The notes under the pieces: generated by a model
Databases searched by the model: none
The model's input: only the letters and a program-made list of their open reading frames with translations
Told to the model about the DNA's origin: nothing
Made by a program: the position numbers and the translations under genes
In this document: one piece after another, positions 38,977 through 49,936 of the stretch
Position numbering within the stretch: the first letter of the stretch is position 1
How the letters are laid out: every line of letters begins with the position of its first letter
Assembly (NCBI GenBank): GCA_002733125.1
Contig: NVUM01000009.1
Location: 11,451-75,450 of the forward strand
Direction: 5' to 3'
DNA from: Porticoccus sp.
GTDB taxonomy: Bacteria > Pseudomonadota > Gammaproteobacteria > Pseudomonadales > Porticoccaceae
Length of the DNA: 64,000 nucleotides

Positions 38977-39441
38977 CTATTTTCCGATGTCAGAACAATC
39001 CCTTTGGATAGAGTAACTGTGCATAATCGAGCCTGAACAAACGTCACCGTCTTCATGTCCTTTTAACCACTCTTTCAGAAACTCAATGCGGGCCAGTACG
39101 AGCCTGGATTCAAACCCGCTGGCACACATCGGGTAAACACTGCCGTATTGTAGGCGTTTATCCTCAAGCGGATATTTCATCTCCATATCTGCTTTCAGGC
39201 TCTTTTCCCATGCTTTTTGGGAAACGTCGAGTTTTGTCAAAAATTCAGGGCTTGCTGACTTGTAGGCGTACTTGATTTTTTCAAGCAAGTTCTCAAGTTT
39301 GCTTCTCACCGTTAGCAAATTGATACCTGCACACTGATTTATTTCTAACTGTGTTTGCGCGTTTTCCATGCATGTGGGTAGCTCATCACTGTAGGTCTGA
39401 AATGCGATTAACAAAGCGGTCAGGCTAAATAAGAACCTCAT
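38977..39441 (-). CDS. LprI (DUF1311) lysozyme-inhibitor family protein, probable old cassette
   Basis: Signal peptide, C..AQTQLEINQCA, SQKAW, GSVYPMC. Confidence 0.8.
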   Translation of the reverse strand: MRFLFSLTALLIAFQTYSDELPTCMENAQTQLEINQCAGINLLTVRSKLENLLEKIKYAYKSASPEFLTKLDVSQKAWEKSLKADMEMKYPLEDKRLQYGSVYPMCASGFESRLVLARIEFLKEWLKGHEDGDVCSGSIMHSYSIQRDCSDIGK

Positions 39442-39563
39442 TGCCCAGCTATTCTCCTAAATATAATGTAGCCAATCAGCCATACATATAGCGGGGAACC
39501 ACAATATGTCTTGTCAGGCTATTCACCGGAAGCTGTTTCAGTAAACATTTTATAGGTGATGCT

Positions 39564-40076
39564 CTATTTCTTTAGGTAAGAAATCATTGTGTCAACATCA
39601 CTACACTCGAATGGGTCATCCGGGCAATCATCCATCATTCCGGTTTCAGCAAAGAGTTGTTTTATTTCCCCATCAATTACGTGAGCGGAATAACGCCATG
39701 ACACCTCACCTGGCCCTTTTTTAACCAGCATCCCCATCAGGCGAGTAAAATTTCCATGTGAATCAGGCAGCATTTTTATATGTTTAAGACCTAAATTTTT
39801 CGCCCACTGAAGCATGGTAAAGGGCGCACTAACGCTCAAACAGTACACTTCATCAACACCCAGTGATTTCAGTTCCTCATACTTGGCATCATAGTCAGGC
39901 AGATGAGTGCGGGAGCTGGTTTCAGTAAATACAGCTGCCAGTGAAAATATAACGACATTTTTACCCGAAAATACCTCTTCTGTTGAAATATCCTTCCAGA
40001 TAAATGGACTTCTCCCGCCAACGCTTTCACCACGGACACGCGTTTTAAATATCACACTGGGTACTTTGTCGCTCAT
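39564..40076 (-). CDS. Prx5/PGdx-type peroxiredoxin homolog lacking the peroxidatic Cys
   Basis: FKTRVR, GVDEVYCLSV, SWRYS, DPFE retained; PGAFTPTC replaced by AAVFTETS. Confidence 0.8.
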   Translation of the reverse strand: MSDKVPSVIFKTRVRGESVGGRSPFIWKDISTEEVFSGKNVVIFSLAAVFTETSSRTHLPDYDAKYEELKSLGVDEVYCLSVSAPFTMLQWAKNLGLKHIKMLPDSHGNFTRLMGMLVKKGPGEVSWRYSAHVIDGEIKQLFAETGMMDDCPDDPFECSDVDTMISYLKK

Positions 40077-40121
40077 AATTTCCTCATTATTCTTAAAATC
40101 AAAGTGTCTAATTTTAAAAGG

Positions 40122-40182
40122 GCATAACGCCTTGCTTAGCAGCGCGCGCTATTTGCGCGTCCGTTGCAGCCACTGGTTAGGC
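40122..40182 (-). mobile_element. Integron attC site (61 bp)
   Basis: Minus strand GCCTAAC-CAGTG-GCTGCAAC-GGACGCGCAAATAGCGCGCGCT-GCTAAGC-AAGGC-GTTATGC = R''/L''/central hairpin/L'/R'. Confidence 0.85.
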
Positions 40183-40214
40183 TGCACTTCGTCTGTTGTT
40201 CGACGAAAATATGG

Positions 40215-40697
40215 TTATACATTTTGTCTCTTCAGAACCCAACGCTTAACCAGATCTTCCAGTATTTTAAGGTACTCTGAGCAGAGTGAGATTGCTGACT
40301 CGTGCTTCGGTAACTGAAACTCGCAAGTGTTATCGAATAGCCAGCCAGTAATATAACCGGGCACAAATTGCGCCTTACCATCGGTAGAGTAGCCAGACCG
40401 GAGCTGAGCGAATCTAGTTCTTTGAAGCGTGACTGTTCCTTTGTGAATGGTGTACACGCGGCGCTCGTTAAAAAACTTCAAAAGAGGCATATTTGATAAG
40501 ACATTCATTTCTTCACGATACCACTCGACAAGTGATATCTCGCTGCTCGATTCGCATTGCATGACAAATGTGACACTTCTAGCGAGGGAAATGAATGAAT
40601 TAATACAAGAACGCACAACAGCTTCGTCCTCAGTGTTTTCCTCCGCGAGTGACAGTTGAATGCGGGCGTCGTCTAGTTTGATCTCAGTTTCAGTCAC
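40215..40697 (-). CDS. Gene-cassette protein, HEPN-like
   Basis: Helical, SFISLARSV...WY...FFNERRVYTIH (Rx4H); bounded by GTTAGGC and attC. Confidence 0.65.
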   Translation of the reverse strand: MTETEIKLDDARIQLSLAEENTEDEAVVRSCINSFISLARSVTFVMQCESSSEISLVEWYREEMNVLSNMPLLKFFNERRVYTIHKGTVTLQRTRFAQLRSGYSTDGKAQFVPGYITGWLFDNTCEFQLPKHESAISLCSEYLKILEDLVKRWVLKRQNV

Positions 40698-40704
40698 TTT
40701 TTCT

Positions 40705-40735
40705 GCCTAACATTTGTATATCGCGCACGTGCGTT
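40705..40735 (-). mobile_element. attI-like recombination site
   Basis: Minus strand GCGCGATATACAAAT-GTTAGGC; core is the exact complement of the cassette R'' GCCTAAC; no attC stem upstream. Confidence 0.6.
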
Positions 40736-41068
40736 TTGCCGAATCTGATATTTGGCGCCCCTTTGTAACAACCTGATAAGGAAAAGAAAGTTGGGAAATG
40801 CCTGATTCCCTTCAGAGTAAAGCGAGTTTTTCCTGTTATCTAAAATAACGGAATCTCGTTATTTTTTCGTACACATGAGCAATCCCTTGTTTTTAAATCT
40901 TTTTGCTATGAAGGCAGTTAGATCATGAGCATGGGCTGAGTATAAACCGCGCGCTGGGTTTGACAACCTCTGGAGAGATTGCTCTGAGTCAGGAGGTATT
41001 TGTTGCGGGATGGCGGCAAGGCTTATGTCAGAAGTCTGCCAGCCGGTATGCAGTTCGGGTTGTTAAAG

Positions 41069-41115
41069 ATGGTGGGCCTTGCTGGACTTGAACCAGCGAC
41101 CAATCGATTATGAGT
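41069..41115 (-). repeat. att direct repeat (3' part of tRNA-Ile2), distal island end
   Basis: 47 bp identical to 49859-49905. Confidence 0.95.
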
Positions 41116-41405: not shown

Positions 41406-42689
41406 ATGAAACTCACCAACACGAAAGTCAAAAGCCTTCCGGTCCCAACCGACAAAGGCCAGGTGTTCCATTGGGACAGCGAGACCCGAGGCTTCGGGCT
41501 GCGCATCACCTCAGCAGGTGCCAAGAGCTGGATAGTTCAGGGGCGCGTCAACGGAAAGACTCGCCGCTATACCCTGGGACCGTTCGAGCTTCTGAGTGCA
41601 GATGATGCTCGGAAGCGGGCACAGGCCAAGCTCCTCGAAATGTATGACGGCAAAGACCCGCAGGTTGAGAAGAAAAAGCTCAAGGCGCAGAGCGAGACAT
41701 TGCGTGAGGTGATGGAGGATTACGTCCAGCACAAGCGCACCAAGAACGGGCCGTTACGACCCAGCAGCAAAGAGGACATCCGGCGCTGTGTTGAGAACAC
41801 CTTTTCAGACTGGGCTGACAAACCTGTGGTCACAATCAGTCGTGACGCCTGTATCAAGAAGTTCCGCGAGCTATCCAAGACCGCGCCAGTGCAGACCAAC
41901 CAAGCCTTCCGCAATCTTCGCGCCTTGCTGAATTGGGCGAGGGAGAAGAACGCGACGGCTGACGGTACTTATCCGATCCTGCCAGTTAACCCAGTCTCCC
42001 AAATGTTCAAGAAGGGCGGGCTGGTGCAGTGGAATCCCGAGAGGGCACGCGCCACCCGTATCCCGAAGGACAGGATAGGGGCCGTTTGGGCATTGCTGGA
42101 GGACTACTCAAACCCCGACCATCATATAACCACAACTTGCATCAGTGCTGATCTGATCGCGTTTATGCTGCTGACTGGCACCCGCGTCAGCGAGACGTGC
42201 AAGCTGACATGGAAGTACGTGAAACTCGATAGCAAGGTGCCGACGTTCCATCTGCATGAGACCAAGAACCACAACCCCGTAACGCTGCCCATCGGTCCGG
42301 TACTGCATGAGGTGTTGAGCCGCCGCCATGCAGAACGCATCAAGGGCAATGATTACGTCTTCCCCGCCGTGCGAGGCAAGAAAGGTTATCTGAGTGACCC
42401 GCGAGCCTTGTTCAAGAAGGTGTCTGAGGTGGCGGGAGAGCACCTGCACCCGCACGCACTACGCCGAACCTTTGAAGACGTAGCCCAGACAGTGGGCGTT
42501 GACTCAGACCAGCGCCGCCAGCTTCTCAATCACCTTGCCAATGATGTGCATGGGCAGAACTACGCCAACAACCCTGACCCAGCAGTTCTCATGCCTGCCA
42601 TGGAAAAAATCGGGGATTGGATTAAGAAGCAGGGCGGCATAGCGCGGGCAGCAGCCAAGGGCGAGAATGTGGTTCCGATGAAGGCCTAG
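41406..42689 (+). CDS. Tyrosine integrase with N-terminal arm-binding domain (P4-like)
   Basis: WDSETRGFGLRIT..GAKSW; LLTGTRVSE, TKN, HALRRTF, LLNH, Tyr in QNY. Confidence 0.93.
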   Translation: MKLTNTKVKSLPVPTDKGQVFHWDSETRGFGLRITSAGAKSWIVQGRVNGKTRRYTLGPFELLSADDARKRAQAKLLEMYDGKDPQVEKKKLKAQSETLREVMEDYVQHKRTKNGPLRPSSKEDIRRCVENTFSDWADKPVVTISRDACIKKFRELSKTAPVQTNQAFRNLRALLNWAREKNATADGTYPILPVNPVSQMFKKGGLVQWNPERARATRIPKDRIGAVWALLEDYSNPDHHITTTCISADLIAFMLLTGTRVSETCKLTWKYVKLDSKVPTFHLHETKNHNPVTLPIGPVLHEVLSRRHAERIKGNDYVFPAVRGKKGYLSDPRALFKKVSEVAGEHLHPHALRRTFEDVAQTVGVDSDQRRQLLNHLANDVHGQNYANNPDPAVLMPAMEKIGDWIKKQGGIARAAAKGENVVPMKA

Positions 42690-42976
42690 TGCAGGTGTTG
42701 CAAAACATGTGGCAGACGTTTCATAAGATCTTGATATTTAAAGGAAATCTAAAAATTACTGCTTGCAAGCACGTAGAAGATCCGTTAGCTTGTAAGGACA
42801 ATTTGCTTTCGCTATCCAGTTGAGCGTGACGCTTTAGCCGCCTTGGCGGTTCGACAGGACTCTACACAATGCATGGGCAGTGTCGCGGAATTCGGGCAAC
42901 CAAGAAACGGGTTGCCAGTTTCGCTGCACTGCCCATTTTCGTTTCTGGTGGTGCAGCAGTGAGAGAAGGTGATCTC

Positions 42977-43186
42977 ATGAATCTGCTAACTACCGAACAA
43001 GCTGCAAAATTCATCTTTGGCCCCGATGGCAAGAAAGGCACGCTGGAACAGTGGCGCTATCGAAAAGTCGGGCCGAAATTCCGCAAGGTCGGAAAGCTGG
43101 TGCGCTACGCCGAAGCTGACCTAATGGAGTACCTAGACCAGCAGGCCCGCACTGGTACCAGCCATCAGAACCTCCAAACGTATTGA
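42977..43186 (+). CDS. AlpA/excisionase-like HTH protein
   Basis: LLTTEQAA...TLEQWRY...GPKFRKVGKLVRY...DL. Confidence 0.88.
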   Translation: MNLLTTEQAAKFIFGPDGKKGTLEQWRYRKVGPKFRKVGKLVRYAEADLMEYLDQQARTGTSHQNLQTY

Positions 43187-43373
43187 ACCAGTTATGTCAC
43201 AGACTATGTTCAGTCCGTCTTTTCCAGAAGCGTGCCAACCCTTTGCCGTCACCTCTGACGGGTCGAGTAACTGCACCTGTAAGCCAATCAAGAAAAAGGG
43301 CCGCTGGATCGCACTGTTTGCACAATGCGGTGGCGTGCTCCAGCAGCCCTTTGCTCGACAGGAGTGATTAGTA

Positions 43374-44861
43374 ATGCCAAGCGACAATACTTTAGGGCAG
43401 CCACCGGAGGCCATGCTAGATAACTTTGGGAATGGCAATGCGGAGCACGGCAGGGAGCAAGCCAATGCTTTGCTCACCGCGCACAGCGGCACACAGGCCG
43501 AGATCGACAGTCGCCCGAGCCTTACATGCGGTGACCTGCCAATGCGCTGGCCTGTGGGCGATGCGGGACACATAGCCGCTGCCATATACCGAGCTAGTTA
43601 TTTGCCACAGCAGGAGGTTGCTATCGTTGCAACGCTGGCGCTGTTATCAGGCATAGCAGGCCGAGCCTACCGCACGCCAACAGGTGCGACGCTGAGTCAG
43701 TATTATCTGCTGGTAGCACCCACGGGTTCAGGCAAAGATGCCATTCACAAGTTGATACCCCAGGTGCTCCGAAACGTGGGAATACCTCAAGCCGACCGCT
43801 TTGCTGTTTCAGAGCGGTTTGTCAGTGCTCCCGCTTTGCATCGCCGCATATTGGAGAAGCCCGGTTTTCTGGCGTTGCATCCTGAGTTCGGAAAGCGTCT
43901 CGTCACTATATCCTCGCCGCGTGCGCAAGGCGGACATGATCAGCAGTTCGGGGACAAGTTGACCGAGGCATATGAGAAGGAATACATGGAAGGGATTTAT
44001 CGCTCTAACCCTGCGGACTGTGTTCCTGGAGTTGAGTGGCCAGCCCTATCATTTCTCGGTGAGACCACCCCGCATACGTTCTATCGCGCTCTAACCATCG
44101 AAATGATGGAAGATGGTTTTTATTCCCGTTTTCTAACGGTCCTTGTTACTTCGGAGCGGCCTGTATCGAATCGCAGGGCGAGTCTTGATCTTTATGGTAA
44201 TGCTTGGGAGGCGCTGCATTCCTTGGTCAGCAAGTCCATTGAAATAAACGACACGCCACCCTTCAAACCTATTCAAGTTGAATATCTCAACTCAAGAGCG
44301 TCGATGCACCTTGACGATTTCGAAGAGGAATGCAGGCAGCGAATTAACCACGCAAACAAGGGCGACGATGCTTTCGGTGCAGCCGTCTGGAATAGGGCAC
44401 ACCTTAAGGCTCTGAAAATCTCTTCCCTGCTAGCAGTTGCTGACAATTGTGTAGAGCCGAAGATCAGCCTCCACCATGCCTCGTGGGCGATTGATCTTGT
44501 TCGCAGGGACGCTCGGGCCTTTATGGAAAAGGTTGAGTCAGGCGACGTAGGTGACGGCGATGATGTTCGTCAGAAAAAGGTGATGGAAATTTGCCTCAAG
44601 ATTTTGCAGGGGAAGATCAAAGATAAGAATCCGAAGCTGTATTCAGATGGAATTGTCACTCGGCGGGTGCTCACAACTAACACGTCACGACTGGCACCGT
44701 TCAAGAATCATCCGCTTAAGGCAACTAAAGCTCTCGATGAAACCATCAGATCGCTGCTCGAATCAGGGGCATTGATGTTGGTCGATAAGCACAAGGCCGT
44801 TGAGGCATACGGGGAGCATGGGAAGTGCTATCGGGTATTGGATTTAGATGACCACAGTTAG
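43374..44861 (+). CDS. DUF3987-like replication/helicase protein
   Basis: Walker A VAPTGSGKD, LSFLGETTP, DGFYSRFL; no N-terminal primase domain apparent. Confidence 0.75.
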   Translation: MPSDNTLGQPPEAMLDNFGNGNAEHGREQANALLTAHSGTQAEIDSRPSLTCGDLPMRWPVGDAGHIAAAIYRASYLPQQEVAIVATLALLSGIAGRAYRTPTGATLSQYYLLVAPTGSGKDAIHKLIPQVLRNVGIPQADRFAVSERFVSAPALHRRILEKPGFLALHPEFGKRLVTISSPRAQGGHDQQFGDKLTEAYEKEYMEGIYRSNPADCVPGVEWPALSFLGETTPHTFYRALTIEMMEDGFYSRFLTVLVTSERPVSNRRASLDLYGNAWEALHSLVSKSIEINDTPPFKPIQVEYLNSRASMHLDDFEEECRQRINHANKGDDAFGAAVWNRAHLKALKISSLLAVADNCVEPKISLHHASWAIDLVRRDARAFMEKVESGDVGDGDDVRQKKVMEICLKILQGKIKDKNPKLYSDGIVTRRVLTTNTSRLAPFKNHPLKATKALDETIRSLLESGALMLVDKHKAVEAYGEHGKCYRVLDLDDHS

Positions 44862-45304: not shown

Positions 45305-46036
45305 ATGGCTATCAACGGCGAAGTAAAACTAACAGTCTCCCCGACACTGCATCCGGCGAACATCACGAGTATTGACGGTTTCGAAGCTGCGAAAGGTTAC
45401 GTCGCAGACGCTGTGACAACTCTGGATGCGGCTCACCAGTCGGTCGCCCATGTGATCGAAGCACGGCAGAAAGTGAATCTTGATGAGAGCCGCACGCCCC
45501 GCGCTAAGGTTCTGATGACTGCCCAACTGGCGGACAAGTATTCAGCGAAGCTGCAAAAGCAGTTCGAGTCGTCCTGGTCACGATTGGACAAGGCGATTCA
45601 GCACACGGAACAGGAACTATCCCAGCCGCTACAGCAGACCGCTGGCGCAGGAAATATAAATGGTGAAATCCGCGCGCATGCAAAAGCCCTTAGCAGGGAT
45701 GATCGAGTGAGGCTCCTAACTGTGGCAATCGAGAGCGGCGACATAACCACAGCAGGGGCAATTCTTGGCGCTCCTCCGTACCTGAGTGGCCTTTCGGATA
45801 TCGAACACAAGCATTTCACACGCCAGTATCACGAAGCGACCAATCCCGAGATGGCCCAGCGCCTTAAGGTGATGCAGGCCACGCGGGAGAAGCTGCAACG
45901 CGCCCATCCGGCATTGCTGCAAGAGCTGGAAAAGGCAGTCGGAGCAAGTCGCCGTGACGTGGAACGTCTCCAAGCTGCCACCAACGAGGCCGAGGCGGCA
46001 CTGGTGATGAAGGACTTCAACCCTGCCGAGCATTGA
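45305..46036 (+). CDS. Helical/coiled-coil satellite protein
   Basis: 243 aa, AGGAG RBS, AILGAPPYLSGL segment. Confidence 0.75.
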   Translation: MAINGEVKLTVSPTLHPANITSIDGFEAAKGYVADAVTTLDAAHQSVAHVIEARQKVNLDESRTPRAKVLMTAQLADKYSAKLQKQFESSWSRLDKAIQHTEQELSQPLQQTAGAGNINGEIRAHAKALSRDDRVRLLTVAIESGDITTAGAILGAPPYLSGLSDIEHKHFTRQYHEATNPEMAQRLKVMQATREKLQRAHPALLQELEKAVGASRRDVERLQAATNEAEAALVMKDFNPAEH

Positions 46037-46066
46037 TCCGGCGCTGATGTAATCAAAGGTTTCGAT

Positions 46067-46537
46067 ATGACCAATGCACAACAAAAGCCGGAATGGTTGG
46101 AGAACTGGAAGCCCGATCCAGATGCACCTAAAACCGGCAATCCGAACTGGAAGCCGGGAATGAAATCTCCAAACCCGAAGGGCCGTCCGAAGGGAATTGT
46201 AGACAAGCGCCAGAAGGTGACGCAGGCCATGCTCAGCGACGCTCACGAGATTGCGGGCGTGGTAGTTGCCAAGGCCAAGGAAGGCGATCTACAGGCTGCC
46301 TCATTGGTGCTGGCGCGGGTTATGCCTACGCTGGCTGCACAAGCTGAAAGGGTTGAGTTTGACCTTGATCCATCTGCACCACTTGCCAAACAGGTAGAGC
46401 AGGTGCTTTCGGCTACCGCAAGCGGGGAGCTATCAACCGACCACGCGGAGCGCATTATCAAGGCGATTGGTGCGCTAGGTGCGATCCGGCAAATGGATGA
46501 GATCGAGAGCAGGCTGGCAGCTCTGGAGGGCCGATAG
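46067..46537 (+). CDS. DUF5681-like protein (possible small-terminase-like)
   Basis: WKPGMKSPNPKGRPKG, AKEGDLQAA, C-terminal IESRLAALE. Confidence 0.7.
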   Translation: MTNAQQKPEWLENWKPDPDAPKTGNPNWKPGMKSPNPKGRPKGIVDKRQKVTQAMLSDAHEIAGVVVAKAKEGDLQAASLVLARVMPTLAAQAERVEFDLDPSAPLAKQVEQVLSATASGELSTDHAERIIKAIGALGAIRQMDEIESRLAALEGR

Positions 46538-46538
46538 C

Positions 46539-46733
46539 ATGGGCTTTGGCTGGGTCAAAGAGTTTGCCGAGGCTGCAACGGCGCAACCTGCTGAGACAGT
46601 GCCCCAGCTTTCCCCGCTGGGACATACGCGGGGGCAGCTGCTTGAACAGCTGGCAAGCGCCAGCGCCCAGCCTCAGACACCTGTGGTCAGGGCGTACATC
46701 GCCGAGGCACGGCGCAGGTTGGGGGCGTTATGA
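46539..46733 (+). CDS. Hypothetical protein
   Basis: ATG 1 bp after previous stop, GGAGG RBS. Confidence 0.55.
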   Translation: MGFGWVKEFAEAATAQPAETVPQLSPLGHTRGQLLEQLASASAQPQTPVVRAYIAEARRRLGAL

Positions 46734-46993
46734 GTACGAGCAAACACTATGACGTTGAGTATCGCTGGGATGGTTACGACGAGTTCGAGCCAATCAAGCC
46801 CGCCGCGCAATATCGGATAGACAAATCCAAATCAAAAGCCTGGTCTGAGATTCAGGCTTTCAACGGGGTGACAACGATCATCAAACGAGAGGACGGGGAA
46901 GTGATGTCAGTTCCCGGTCGTGCGGAGATCGTCGGCACCTATGACCCCTCTGTACCAATCAAGCAATTCAGGAGTGACTGCGATGCAACGTGA
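46730..46993 (+). CDS. Hypothetical protein
   Basis: ATGA overlap with the previous gene. Confidence 0.6.
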   Translation: MSTSKHYDVEYRWDGYDEFEPIKPAAQYRIDKSKSKAWSEIQAFNGVTTIIKREDGEVMSVPGRAEIVGTYDPSVPIKQFRSDCDAT

Positions 46994-47411
46994 AAAGATC
47001 AGGATTGAAGGCGACATGCGCCTGCCTACTGCGGACATGAAGGTTCACCGCTGGGACAACATGACCAACTTCTGTCTGGACGAAGGCCAGCTACATTGGC
47101 CACACGGTGACTGCGAGACAGTGCCCGCCCTCTTCATTGAGGCTGGCGGTGACGCGATGTTGGTCTGTGCCGAGAAGCTGGAGGAAGTCTGGAAGATAGC
47201 GATCAACCTCTGTGTCAGTATGCAAGTCTTTGACAGGGAAAAACCGTGGCTTTGGAAGGAGAGCGAAGGGACGATTATTGAGACACGCATTCCCCGTGAC
47301 GAGGTGGAGACTTTTACCGGCTTCAACGGTGCAGCCGATTTCATTGCTTGCCGCCATCCGTCCCATGCTGTGCGGGTCGAGATGATTGCTAAGCTGGCTG
47401 GTGTGGCATGA
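46983..47411 (+). CDS. Hypothetical protein
   Basis: AGGAG RBS before ATG 46983; overlaps neighbours. Confidence 0.65.
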   Translation: MQREKIRIEGDMRLPTADMKVHRWDNMTNFCLDEGQLHWPHGDCETVPALFIEAGGDAMLVCAEKLEEVWKIAINLCVSMQVFDREKPWLWKESEGTIIETRIPRDEVETFTGFNGAADFIACRHPSHAVRVEMIAKLAGVA

Positions 47412-47632
47412 GAGCGCGGGTATCAATGGCCACACTGAAGCGGCTGGAGGCATTGGAGCGATCGCGTGGTCAAAGAAAGGTCGTGGCCCTGTTCCCGGAG
47501 TTGATGCCCGTTGACGAGTGGGGCACTATCGCAGAGAGTATGCAGCGAGAACTAAAGGGAAACATAAAAAAAGATGTTCCGCCGAACTATGACAGTTCCA
47601 TAATCAGTAGGCTTATCTTAGTTGCGTACTAA
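47408..47632 (+). CDS. Hypothetical protein
   Basis: ATGA overlap; LKRLEALE motif. Confidence 0.55.
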   Translation: MRARVSMATLKRLEALERSRGQRKVVALFPELMPVDEWGTIAESMQRELKGNIKKDVPPNYDSSIISRLILVAY

Positions 47633-47645
47633 AAGCCGGAGCTAA

Positions 47646-48413
47646 TTAAACCGTGTATTTTAGAACCACATTCTCAACGAGATCCTCAACAAAGTCGATC
47701 ACCTTGGTTTTGTTGATTGTTACCCCTGAGGGGTGCGCGGAGGAGTTTCGCGTGTCGAGCTTTTGATCGAGGATTTTCTTAACGTCCGGAGATATAATTT
47801 TCGCTTGCCTGCAAAAATCGATGAACTTCGAGTCCTTGATTTCAGAAAAGTCATCTCGTACTAAAACTTTCTTTATTTTAACGCTCCGGTCGGTATTCTT
47901 CGCTAATACATCATTAAATGGATCGAGTCGGAGTTTGTTGCTGAGAATATAAACGAACAGATGATCCATGGCGAGAATCCACGCCATTACGATCGTGGCA
48001 CGGTTGGCGCCGGCCTCGAAACAATCAATAGTCTCCTTTAGAAATTCCTTATCGGCACCCTCTGGTAATTTTTGCTCGAGCCCCCTCAGAGTGGCGCTGG
48101 TCTGTATAGTAATTCTTTCTGCGCCTATCTTTTTTGATAGATCTTCTCGCATATGTCTTTGAAGCTTGTAACCACCATTGGTCTTTATATATTTCGGGTT
48201 TTTCCCTTTTACCCCCTCCGAGAGTCTGGCTCCAATACTTTTTGAGGCTACTAAGTCACATACGGTAAAGCACTCCGTAATTTTCTTGGTCGTAGCAGAC
48301 TCTTCTCCAAGCTCGACAGTCAAGAAGTAAACAAAAAGTTCAACCAATGCCGACTGGCTTAAATTGGAAGCATCCTCAATGGAGTTGTAAAACCTGTTAG
48401 TTGCATCGATCAT
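47646..48413 (-). CDS. wHTH-like + HEPN (DUF4145-like) protein
   Basis: FLKETIDCFEAGANRATIVMAW and RNSSAHP (Rx4H). Confidence 0.75.
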   Translation of the reverse strand: MIDATNRFYNSIEDASNLSQSALVELFVYFLTVELGEESATTKKITECFTVCDLVASKSIGARLSEGVKGKNPKYIKTNGGYKLQRHMREDLSKKIGAERITIQTSATLRGLEQKLPEGADKEFLKETIDCFEAGANRATIVMAWILAMDHLFVYILSNKLRLDPFNDVLAKNTDRSVKIKKVLVRDDFSEIKDSKFIDFCRQAKIISPDVKKILDQKLDTRNSSAHPSGVTINKTKVIDFVEDLVENVVLKYTV

Positions 48414-48994
48414 TCTGCGTCACCATTTTTCTTTAAATCAAACTTAAAATGATTTGTGCCTGTGGTGGTAACCTTTATGTCTGACGGCGAGTTATAGTCG
48501 ATGAACCCAAATTTTCGGCCGCTGGCATCTCTGAACGCTTGTGCGAATATTTTGGGGATTCGTTCGTTTACTTTCTCGTAACAGGTGTAAATCTGATCTG
48601 TGTTAGGAGCCTCTATGCCCAGTTCGTCCACCAAGAACTTCATGAATAGAAGAATCTTCTCTGGATGGTTTTTGGGACTATATTGGCTATAAAAGTTGGT
48701 CAAGGCCGACGTGTCTAAGTTTTTGTCAAGCTGAGGGGAGTTAGCTGATATTGCTGGACCTTCCTCTGTGGCGCTTGGTTTTGGTTGGGTCGTGCGCCGT
48801 GGACGACTCCTGGCTTTAGGTGCCTTCGAGTCGGTTGGAGGGAGGTTATCAGTGTTTGAGTTAACTTGAGTGCTTACCGGTTTTGATATCAGAAGTTGCT
48901 CTTTGAAATCTGCATAAATTTCGCGGACCATCTCCGGATCACCCTCAACATCGATGATCCCTTGTGAAAGATTGATGTGCAATTTTGTGCTCAT
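48410..48994 (-). CDS. Hypothetical protein with wHTH-like C-terminus
   Basis: IDVEGD N-domain, P/S/T linker, FY..YSPKNHPEKILLFMKFL...KVTTTG; GGAGG RBS. Confidence 0.75.
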   Translation of the reverse strand: MSTKLHINLSQGIIDVEGDPEMVREIYADFKEQLLISKPVSTQVNSNTDNLPPTDSKAPKARSRPRRTTQPKPSATEEGPAISANSPQLDKNLDTSALTNFYSQYSPKNHPEKILLFMKFLVDELGIEAPNTDQIYTCYEKVNERIPKIFAQAFRDASGRKFGFIDYNSPSDIKVTTTGTNHFKFDLKKNGDAE

Positions 48995-49028
48995 GTAGGC
49001 CTCCGCGCCTCTTTCAGTTAATTCATGA

Positions 49029-49559
49029 TCAGTAGGTGTTGTTGCTGAGCATTGCCTCTACCGCTTTCTTCCCTTCATAAGTAACTTTGAATGTCTTGCG
49101 TGCCTGTTTCGATGATCCAGATTTGCGAAGCTGGACCACGACTTGGGGTTTTGTTTTGGTGAGGCTGTCAAAGGCGCGAGTGATATTTCCAACGCCATGT
49201 CCCATGTGCTTTAACATGGTGTTAACACTCTGCGTGTCCACATTGGCTTGACCTTCCTTGTACTGGAGCCAATAGCTTGTCACGAGAGCTTTTTCTGAGT
49301 CAGAGTTAGGCTGCGTGGCTGCATACATTTCTGCAAAATCTTCAAACTCTAAGGGGTCAAGACTGGCTGCGGTTGCCGATACTTGCGGGTGAGCTGTTGG
49401 GGCAACTTCCTTGGTGTGTTGTGCTGATGGCTCAACCCCATACATGTCGTTTGCCCAGCGAAGGACGCGGTGTATTGACTCACTTTCAAGGCCTTCCATG
49501 GCCTCGGCTACTTTCTTCATCGACTCAAGCTCTGCTAGTGGGTTTGGAGTGTCGCTCAT
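49029..49559 (-). CDS. Hypothetical protein with wHTH-like C-terminus
   Basis: Helical N-domain, linker, MY...QPNSDSEKALVTSYWL...FKVTYEG; GAGG RBS. Confidence 0.75.
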   Translation of the reverse strand: MSDTPNPLAELESMKKVAEAMEGLESESIHRVLRWANDMYGVEPSAQHTKEVAPTAHPQVSATAASLDPLEFEDFAEMYAATQPNSDSEKALVTSYWLQYKEGQANVDTQSVNTMLKHMGHGVGNITRAFDSLTKTKPQVVVQLRKSGSSKQARKTFKVTYEGKKAVEAMLSNNTY

Positions 49560-49822
49560 CTAGAAGTCCTCGGTTTTAGGAATTGTTGGTCACTTTATCA
49601 CCAGCAAAACTATGCGTCAATAGGGTATGATAGTAACGTAAGAGAATGTGTGCATAAACACATACGTTAACGACTAGAGCGTAACAAAAGTGCGTAATAA
49701 AATAAAAAAAGCAATATAAAACAAAGAGATATGGAGATTAAGTATTGCTTTGATGGGTGTGGTTGGTGGGGTTTTAGTACGAGGTATCTGATCGGACTTC
49801 AGCGTTAGCATGTTCTGAAAGC

Positions 49823-49851: not shown

Positions 49852-49859
49852 GGGTGTAA

Positions 49860-49936
49860 TGGTGGGCCTTGCTGGACTTGAACCAGCGACCAATCGATTA
49901 TGAGTCGACTGCTCTAACCAACTGAGCTAAAGGCCC
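49860..49936 (-). tRNA. ileX: tRNA-Ile2 (CAT anticodon, lysidine type)
   Basis: GGGCCTTTAGCTCAGTTGGTTAGAGCAGTCGACTCATAATCGATTGGTCGCTGGTTCAAGTCCAGCAAGGCCCACCA; ileX-like sequence downstream of rpoD. Confidence 0.92.

Follow-up and report, generated by a model that had tools for sequence, protein, structure and literature searches.

The question raised by this locus is whether three tightly spaced genes, carried by a tRNA-integrated element of Porticoccus sp., constitute a new defence system. The genes lie on the minus strand of a 64,000-nt stretch of contig NVUM01000009.1 (the window, in whose numbering all coordinates are given), and form a cassette of 1.9 kb in which all three are intact. 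Gene 1 (49029..49559; 176 amino acids (aa)) encodes an accessory winged helix-turn-helix (wHTH) adaptor, gene 2 (48410..48994; 194 aa) the core wHTH adaptor, and gene 3 (47646..48413; 255 aa) the effector, which combines a wHTH module with a predicted HEPN ribonuclease (RNase) domain. A preliminary description, made from the sequence alone, had presented the three as a tripartite system without a name. Our analyses show that the cassette is real and well conserved, but that the conserved unit consists of gene 2 and gene 3, gene 1 being an interchangeable optional extra. In addition, the cassette probably is a HEPN-type member of the poly-wHTH systems, a class that has already been predicted.

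The open reading frame (ORF) calls, the lower GC content and the HEPN-like motif were all as the preliminary description had stated. Thus, three ORFs of the lengths given were found, genes 2 and 3 overlap by ATGA, and the sequence RNSSAH occupies residues 222-227 of gene 3. The GC content of the genes (49.9%, 44.8% and 43.2% for genes 1, 2 and 3, respectively) is lower than that of the element core (54.1%) and of the window (55.3%). Genes 1 and 2 are separated by 34 nt, and a ribosome-binding-like site (GAGG/GGAGG) is present at each of them. A sigma-70-like promoter candidate on the minus strand (49592..49620; TTGACG-17-TAAAGT with TG ahead of the -10 box) is located 33 nt upstream of gene 1; five sites of this type were detected versus 3.0 +/- 1.7 in shuffled sequences, so that the candidate is not above chance.

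The HEPN fold that had been ascribed to gene 3 was upheld by structural modelling. The AlphaFold2 model was based on 71 aligned relatives and was made for protein P0001, in which residue 51 is not the same as in the window protein; it contains two domains and has a mean pLDDT of 87. Analysis of this model with VIA-align revealed that residues 14-99 match winged helices and that residues 117-255 match HEPN domains. The best HEPN match was 2hsb_A (Z 10.1, root-mean-square deviation (rmsd) 2.9, 110 aligned residues), followed by 2jpu, AbiA, sacsin, HepT and Csm6 chains, several of them at Z 8-9.5, values that are modest for a helical bundle. Foldseek did not return a match for the whole model at E<=0.001. 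According to the accessible text of PMC3710099, the HEPN RNase motif is Rx4-6H with a polar residue after the R. This is what gene 3 contains (R222-N223-x3-H227), together with the motif E133-x4-R138. Residues R222, N223 and H227 are invariant in all 71 aligned relatives, and RNxxxH is present in 120/120 listed relatives. The same 120 carry the precomputed Pfam label PF27235 (AF_1680), as do 97-100% of the proteins in the three best Atlas clusters for gene 3; this is an uncharacterised family label only, for which a literature search did not retrieve a paper. A weak match (E 8.8e-5) was obtained between residues 112-228 of gene 3 and the N-terminal HEPN region of the PADLOC profile PD-T7-3 (positions 9-121 of 432).

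The AlphaFold2 model of gene 1 consists of a two-helix N-domain (residues 7-40), a disordered linker (46-67) and a C-terminal wHTH (77-176). Its best fold match in VIA-align was 1stz_A (Z 10.6, rmsd 2.1, 80 aligned residues), followed by PadR/MarR-type wHTHs, and hence the winged-helix fold proposed for genes 1 and 3 is supported by both methods. Gene 2 has a short N-domain (residues ~1-36; beta-beta-alpha by eye), a basic low-complexity linker and a C-terminal wHTH-like module (~93-188), and its residues 95-192 align with a protein of the AF_1680 family with a TM of 0.41 (the Atlas's own model). For genes 1 and 2, 297 and 178 relatives were found, respectively. PADLOC, Pfam, NCBIfam and PHROGs do not name either gene, and PDB sequence searches with the alignments of the three genes produced nothing credible.

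We then asked whether the three proteins share one module, as had been claimed. Profiles built from alignments of close homologs gave weak probabilities (4.8% for genes 1 and 2, 58% for genes 2 and 3, and 0.2% for genes 1 and 3). With a broader gene-2-family profile (67 sequences, trimmed to the module), the probabilities rose to 95% for genes 2 and 1 (E 3e-8) and to 92% for genes 2 and 3 (E 7e-7), but a direct comparison of genes 1 and 3 was not significant even with broader profiles (0.5%). The three modules are therefore linked through gene 2, and the claim of a shared module holds in this indirect form. At E<0.01, the broad profile detected 77/120 gene-1 relatives, 116/120 gene-3 relatives and 0/240 reversed controls; the search that supplied its members had used a seed including a single row for gene 1 and another for gene 3. 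The net charges of the modules are +4, -1 and +1 for genes 1, 2 and 3, respectively. A complex prediction with two copies of gene 3 and one of gene 2 scored 0.00, and controls were not folded; it was used neither for nor against binding.

Next to the fold, the genomic arrangement of relatives defines the conserved unit. Scanning genomes with gene 3 yielded 42 loci, 38 of which are near full length (the partial matches L039-L042 fall outside this set); locus L175, from the unpublished genome G1194, was left out of all locus analyses. An adaptor is located directly upstream of gene 3 in 35 of the 38 loci, belonging to the gene-2 family in 33 cases and being another adaptor in two. The junction is a -4 overlap in 30 of these 35 loci and lies within -4 to +11 nt in all of them, and in 33/35 the adaptor and gene 3 have a lower GC content than their flanks (mean -12 points). 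In the three adaptor-less loci (L020, L023 and L027), gene 3 lacks its own 5' end or start. Gene 1 adjoins in only one of the 38 loci (L033). Because an adaptor precedes gene 3 in 35/38 loci but gene 1 is adjacent in 1/38, the core consists of two genes, and the fixed tripartite system of the preliminary description was rejected, gene 1 also being found frequently alone or head-to-head with another gene. The cassette is under purifying selection: comparison of all three genes with those of locus L045 gave saturated synonymous divergence (dS) and a non-synonymous divergence (dN) of 0.13-0.18. Among plasmid hits H2-H15, adjoining adaptor-like and gene-3-like matches were also observed in seven Ralstonia solanacearum megaplasmid records, and an Ochrobactrum plasmid contains an adaptor/gene-3 pair near DUF4238 and VapBC genes.

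The distribution of gene 1 was studied in a metagenome scan, in which the best 80 of 386 loci formed 70 clusters at 90% identity; the profiles used to recognise partners were derived from these same neighbouring genes. A partner of the family is present within 900 nt of gene 1 in 20/70 clusters, and in 12/28 of those with enough flank on both sides. One cluster (L044/L045) shows the run of genes 1, 2 and 3 again, at the same tRNA as in the window. In 6/70 clusters, and also in L141, gene 1 is head-to-head with a wHTH-HEPN or gene-2-like gene, and in the head-to-head loci L056, L057, L061, L068, L078, L065 and L141 there are about 100 nt between the starts. At other loci (L090, L093, L094, L095, L104, L109, L119 and L121), gene 1 takes the place of gene 2 and is coupled directly to a downstream HEPN-wHTH or wHTH-HEPN gene. 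Other couplings involve a reversed HEPN-wHTH or a DUF4145 gene or, via a second adaptor, a pP_pnuc_1 or TIR-like domain. Three-gene runs recur with other parts in L033, L062, L077, L093, L098 and L104. Directly downstream of a gene-1 relative, L064:959-1522 has a weak PADLOC PD-T4-9_A match (E 7e-5), and L065 has a similar ORF after gene 1.

The adaptor family is much wider than these loci. At E<=0.001, a 15-row module profile matched 3963 representatives; among the 150 best of these, 62 contain two modules in one polypeptide. Matches to the family were found in 5/401, 4/351, 11/351 and 14/351 genomes of four samples; these tallies count the centre genome wherever it gave a match, and the last one includes the unpublished genome of L175, which was not analysed as a locus. 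Thirty loci of the broad gene-2 family comprised 13 with a coupled effector, one AbiEii fusion and 16 solo genes. In the fusion, L160:3-1265, an AbiEii nucleotidyltransferase (Pfam E 9e-30) carries a gene-2-like adaptor at its C-terminus. Adaptor relatives adjoin wHTH-HEPN, HEPN-wHTH, DUF4145 and pP_pnuc_1 genes, an HDRY-motif protein and a TIR-like domain (by eye). Such effector swapping is a typical pattern of conflict systems. Locus L161 contains three wHTH-like genes, the last of which ends in an HDRY-motif domain that matches the PADLOC candidate PDC-S05 (E 7e-13). Judging by eye from the motifs, this domain may be HKD-like and the domain in L062 TIR-like; Pfam, NCBIfam and PDB sequence searches do not name either of them, and a cyclase was not seen among the loci. 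The N-terminal extensions also vary: besides the two-helix type of gene 1 and the beta-beta-alpha-like type of gene 2 (by eye), a double zinc ribbon (P0371; Pfam DZR E 2e-8) and membrane plus coiled-coil-like extensions (P0407 and P0439, by eye) were found. In a plasmid tblastn search, five adaptor types including gene 1 did not give a match, a tandem-module protein matched Ralstonia records only, and one other adaptor matched two haloarchaeal plasmids.

Does this anatomy correspond to a known system? The preliminary description had not recognised one, and PADLOC indeed contains no system of this kind; however, the description was overtaken by a preprint of October 2026, in which Li, Burroughs and Aravind predict the class of poly-wHTH (PRA-wHTH) systems (bioRxiv 10.64898/2026.10.19.760177). 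According to its accessible text, these systems contain a fast-evolving wHTH in several copies, separate or in tandem, with at least four N-terminal extensions, and effectors that are mostly HEPN but also cNMP (cyclic nucleotide monophosphate) cyclase, HKD phosphoesterase or TIR, while some runs are effector-less; the founding context is a wHTH upstream of ParA plus Tox-RelA (10.64898/2026.10.19.760177). The cassette and its relatives resemble the class, as far as it is described there, in having several related wHTH modules as distinct linked genes (three in the window, and runs of three in L033, L062, L093, L098, L104 and L161), tandem copies in one polypeptide (the 62 two-module proteins), HEPN as the prevailing type of downstream effector, and an effector-less subset (16/28 gene-1 clusters and 16/30 broad gene-2-family loci). 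Four distinct N-terminal extensions, which need not be those of the preprint, were also seen here. Unlike the class as described, they show a satellite location, a fixed two-gene core and a head-to-head layout, features that the section on these systems does not mention. We did not find the ParA plus Tox-RelA context either: there is no ParA-type deviant Walker A motif in L001-L179 (without L175), the flanks being short and multicellular taxa lying outside the sample. On present evidence the cassette is not a categorically new system, but probably belongs to a class already predicted in print. In the literature, as far as its accessible text goes, we did not find an experimentally tested system of this anatomy, including in DefensePredictor (PMC13092281) and Domainator (PMC11754643), although a tested relative named only in tables or in subscription papers may have been missed.

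Two known systems were considered and ruled out by architecture. DARNA (PD-T7-3) is described as a tRNA nuclease that is switched on by phage-presented single-stranded DNA (ssDNA) and in which one polypeptide of 456 aa combines an N-terminal HEPN with a large, helical C-domain that senses ssDNA (10.64898/2026.02.22.705581, accessible text). Its HEPN domain is weakly similar to that of gene 3, but this region alone matches: gene 3 has the order wHTH then HEPN in 255 aa, and DARNA as described is without a wHTH and without adaptor genes. The HEPN-MNT (HepT/MntA) toxin-antitoxin systems share the two-gene layout with HEPN downstream, and HepT chains are among the fold matches of gene 3. However, the partner in the cassette is a wHTH adaptor and not a nucleotidyltransferase (genes 1 and 2 lack a Pfam nucleotidyltransferase match), and the HEPN of gene 3 is fused to a wHTH.

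The cassette forms the right end of an element of 8.8 kb, whose core genes are on the plus strand. The element is bounded by direct repeats (att) of 47 nt, the left one (41069..41115) being a perfect copy of the right one (49859..49905), which lies within the 3' part of a tRNA(CAT) gene. This tRNA gene (49860-49936, minus strand) lies downstream of rpoD and is annotated as Met by ARAGORN; judged by its position and by comparison with E. coli, it may be tRNA-Ile2. The core contains a tyrosine integrase (41409..42689; Pfam Phage_integrase + Arm-DNA-bind_3, E 5e-16), an excisionase/AlpA-like helix-turn-helix gene (42869..43186; Pfam HTH_17, E 1.7e-6), a primase/helicase-like replication gene (DUF3987; 43374..44861; PHROG 3022, E 1.6e-100) and a DUF5681 protein (46067..46537; Pfam DUF5681, E 5e-8), which we take to be terminase-small-subunit-like. 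The ORF of the primase-like gene (43183-44861, plus strand) matches only positions 339-781 of 788 in PHROG 3022, the N-terminal part being absent, and a single base just upstream of the gene, at 43235, is missing in one public run. The other genes of the element, of 243, 84, 87, ~150 and 74 aa (45305..47632, plus strand), have no assigned function; the 74-aa gene is convergent with gene 3, and a relative of it lies after gene 3 in L045.

Phage-inducible chromosomal island (PICI)-like phage satellites are characterised by an integrase, an AlpA-like regulator, a primase/replicase, att repeats and a size below about 15 kb. The satellite nature claimed in the preliminary description is borne out as regards this set, since the element has an integrase, an AlpA-like gene, a primase/helicase-like gene and att repeats in 8.8 kb, besides the terminase-small-like gene. 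"PICI-like satellite" is a fair yet incomplete label, because a capsid gene was not identified in PHROG and Pfam scans of the element, the DUF5681 gene being the only packaging-type candidate. Neither credible relatives of two core genes nor related satellites carrying different cargo were found in viral contigs and 249 other genomes. In 40 related genomes the element was not found and the tRNA alone matched. In contigs of 4/4 public runs examined, all three cassette genes are covered with few differing letters, the left flank is essentially without cover, and one contig continues past the left repeat into unrelated DNA; one of the runs may be the source sample. A single public RNA run contained the stretch, with a share of 0.09. 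The element, which is present in several habitats, therefore appears to be mobile and to retain its cargo. Just beyond the left repeat, in a low-GC stretch (39000-41000), there is a 160-aa gene (40215-40697, minus strand) with an R-x4-H motif and a weak phrog_19262 match (E 0.001); it may be a further HEPN-like cargo gene that an earlier insertion left at the same tRNA.

Which function could the cassette have? The reading that we favour, at about even chances, is that of a wHTH-gated HEPN RNase acting against invading phage or mobile DNA, for the cell or for the element, gene 1 adding an optional further adaptor to the gene 2/gene 3 pair. We favour it because of the HEPN motif, the effector swapping, the horizontal spread and the satellite location. 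Beyond the fold and the coupling, we infer every step of the mechanism. Genes 2 and 3 would act as a translationally coupled pair of a predicted wHTH adaptor and a wHTH-fused, predicted HEPN RNase. The adaptors may oligomerise via their small N-domains and bind DNA via the tethered wHTH, and gene 3 would depend on its own wHTH for being restrained or recruited. On the arrival of foreign DNA, or once the adaptor is lost, two HEPN domains would come together in an active dimer, which would cut host RNA, so that the infected cell stalls. By analogy this RNA might be tRNA, as in the distant relative DARNA/PD-T7-3; the available description of the latter makes it an example of a related HEPN that acts as a DNA-switched tRNA nuclease.

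Several results weigh against a defence function. Gene 1 is without an effector partner in 16/28 testable clusters, and the 16 solo loci among the 30 of the broad gene-2 family are often found amid housekeeping genes. Related loci are mostly lone low-GC islets and not defence islands: among 106 neighbouring ORFs at 32 genome loci, part of a selection of 139 and including many shadow ORFs, a strict Pfam scan (E<=1e-12) did not recognise a defence gene, and the matches were housekeeping genes, insertion sequence (IS) transposases and one ArdA. The family is also rare in viruses, gene 3 occurring in one viral contig, gene 1 in none and neither in a GenBank phage, and we did not find an experiment on any family member in the literature. 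Finally, gene 2 is broken and gene 3 apparently intact in 2/35 loci (L005 and L032, both metagenome assemblies).

This last observation bears equally on a less probable alternative, to which we give about half the weight of the defence function, namely a toxin-antitoxin module for addiction or stress, made up of genes 2 and 3 and without an anti-phage role, in which gene 2, as antitoxin and autorepressor, and gene 3, as HEPN toxin, would stabilise the element. The antitoxin-first order, the -4 overlap in 30/35 loci, the occurrence as lone 1.4-kb low-GC islets amid unrelated housekeeping genes, and the missing 5' end of gene 3 in the 3/38 adaptor-less loci would all fit such a module. An intact toxin next to a broken antitoxin would not, although lost coupling could silence gene 3 in L005 and L032. 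Moreover, pairing of the adaptor family with unrelated effectors, and its solo and tandem copies, are unexpected for a dedicated antitoxin. These same solo and tandem copies are accommodated by the proposal that Li, Burroughs and Aravind, in the accessible text, make for the poly-wHTH class, in which the wHTH proteins cover invading DNA and prevent it from being expressed or replicated, with the HEPN as a back-up. For the cassette we consider this proposal unlikely. Effector-less genes are frequent and tandem modules common, and the layout of the adaptors may be comparable to that of silencers: H-NS, Lsr2 and Rok consist of a small N-domain, a linker and a DNA-binding domain. However, the HEPN motif does not vary within this branch, coupling to HEPN is tight, and the modules are not strongly basic.

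A further possibility, no more probable than DNA coating, is that the wHTH module works in a plug-and-play manner, for docking and polymerisation: adaptors resembling silencers would spread on foreign DNA and co-polymerise with any effector bearing the module, the filament would activate the HEPN RNase by forcing its dimer, and further adaptors, gene 1 among them, would bring new DNA specificities. If true, the solo copies in housekeeping contexts could be an undescribed nucleoid-protein family and the source of the system. Solo gene-2-like adaptors in repeated housekeeping contexts (L155-L159, L163, L166, L169, L170, L173, L174 and L176-L179) are found beside a queC-like, clpX-like or acyl-CoA dehydrogenase gene (names by eye), with up to three per genome, and could be an undescribed family of nucleoid-associated or regulatory proteins. 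With respect to gene 1 alone, and compatible with all other readings, it is doubtful, yet somewhat more probable than the toxin-antitoxin module, that it is not a subunit but a regulator of cassette transcription or independent cargo, the three-gene run being a recent juxtaposition. Its adjacency in only 1/38 genome loci, the head-to-head arrangement (a classic regulator layout), the PadR/MarR-type wHTHs as closest folds, and the 34-nt gap to gene 2, without overlap, all point in this direction. The direct couplings of gene 1 to HEPN-wHTH or wHTH-HEPN genes at the eight loci listed above, and the three-gene runs that recur with other parts (L033, L062, L077, L093, L098 and L104), argue against it.

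In the accessible text of the preprint, the poly-wHTH class is a prediction of one paragraph, and we did not find a test of it in the literature. The cassette spans no more than 1.9 kb, has all its genes intact, is subject to purifying selection and belongs to an element present in several habitats, which makes it a ready test case for this class and a good experimental handle. It could separate three models, DNA coating, a gated RNase and a toxin-antitoxin, and could show how winged-helix partners control a HEPN RNase and whether adaptors swap between effectors.

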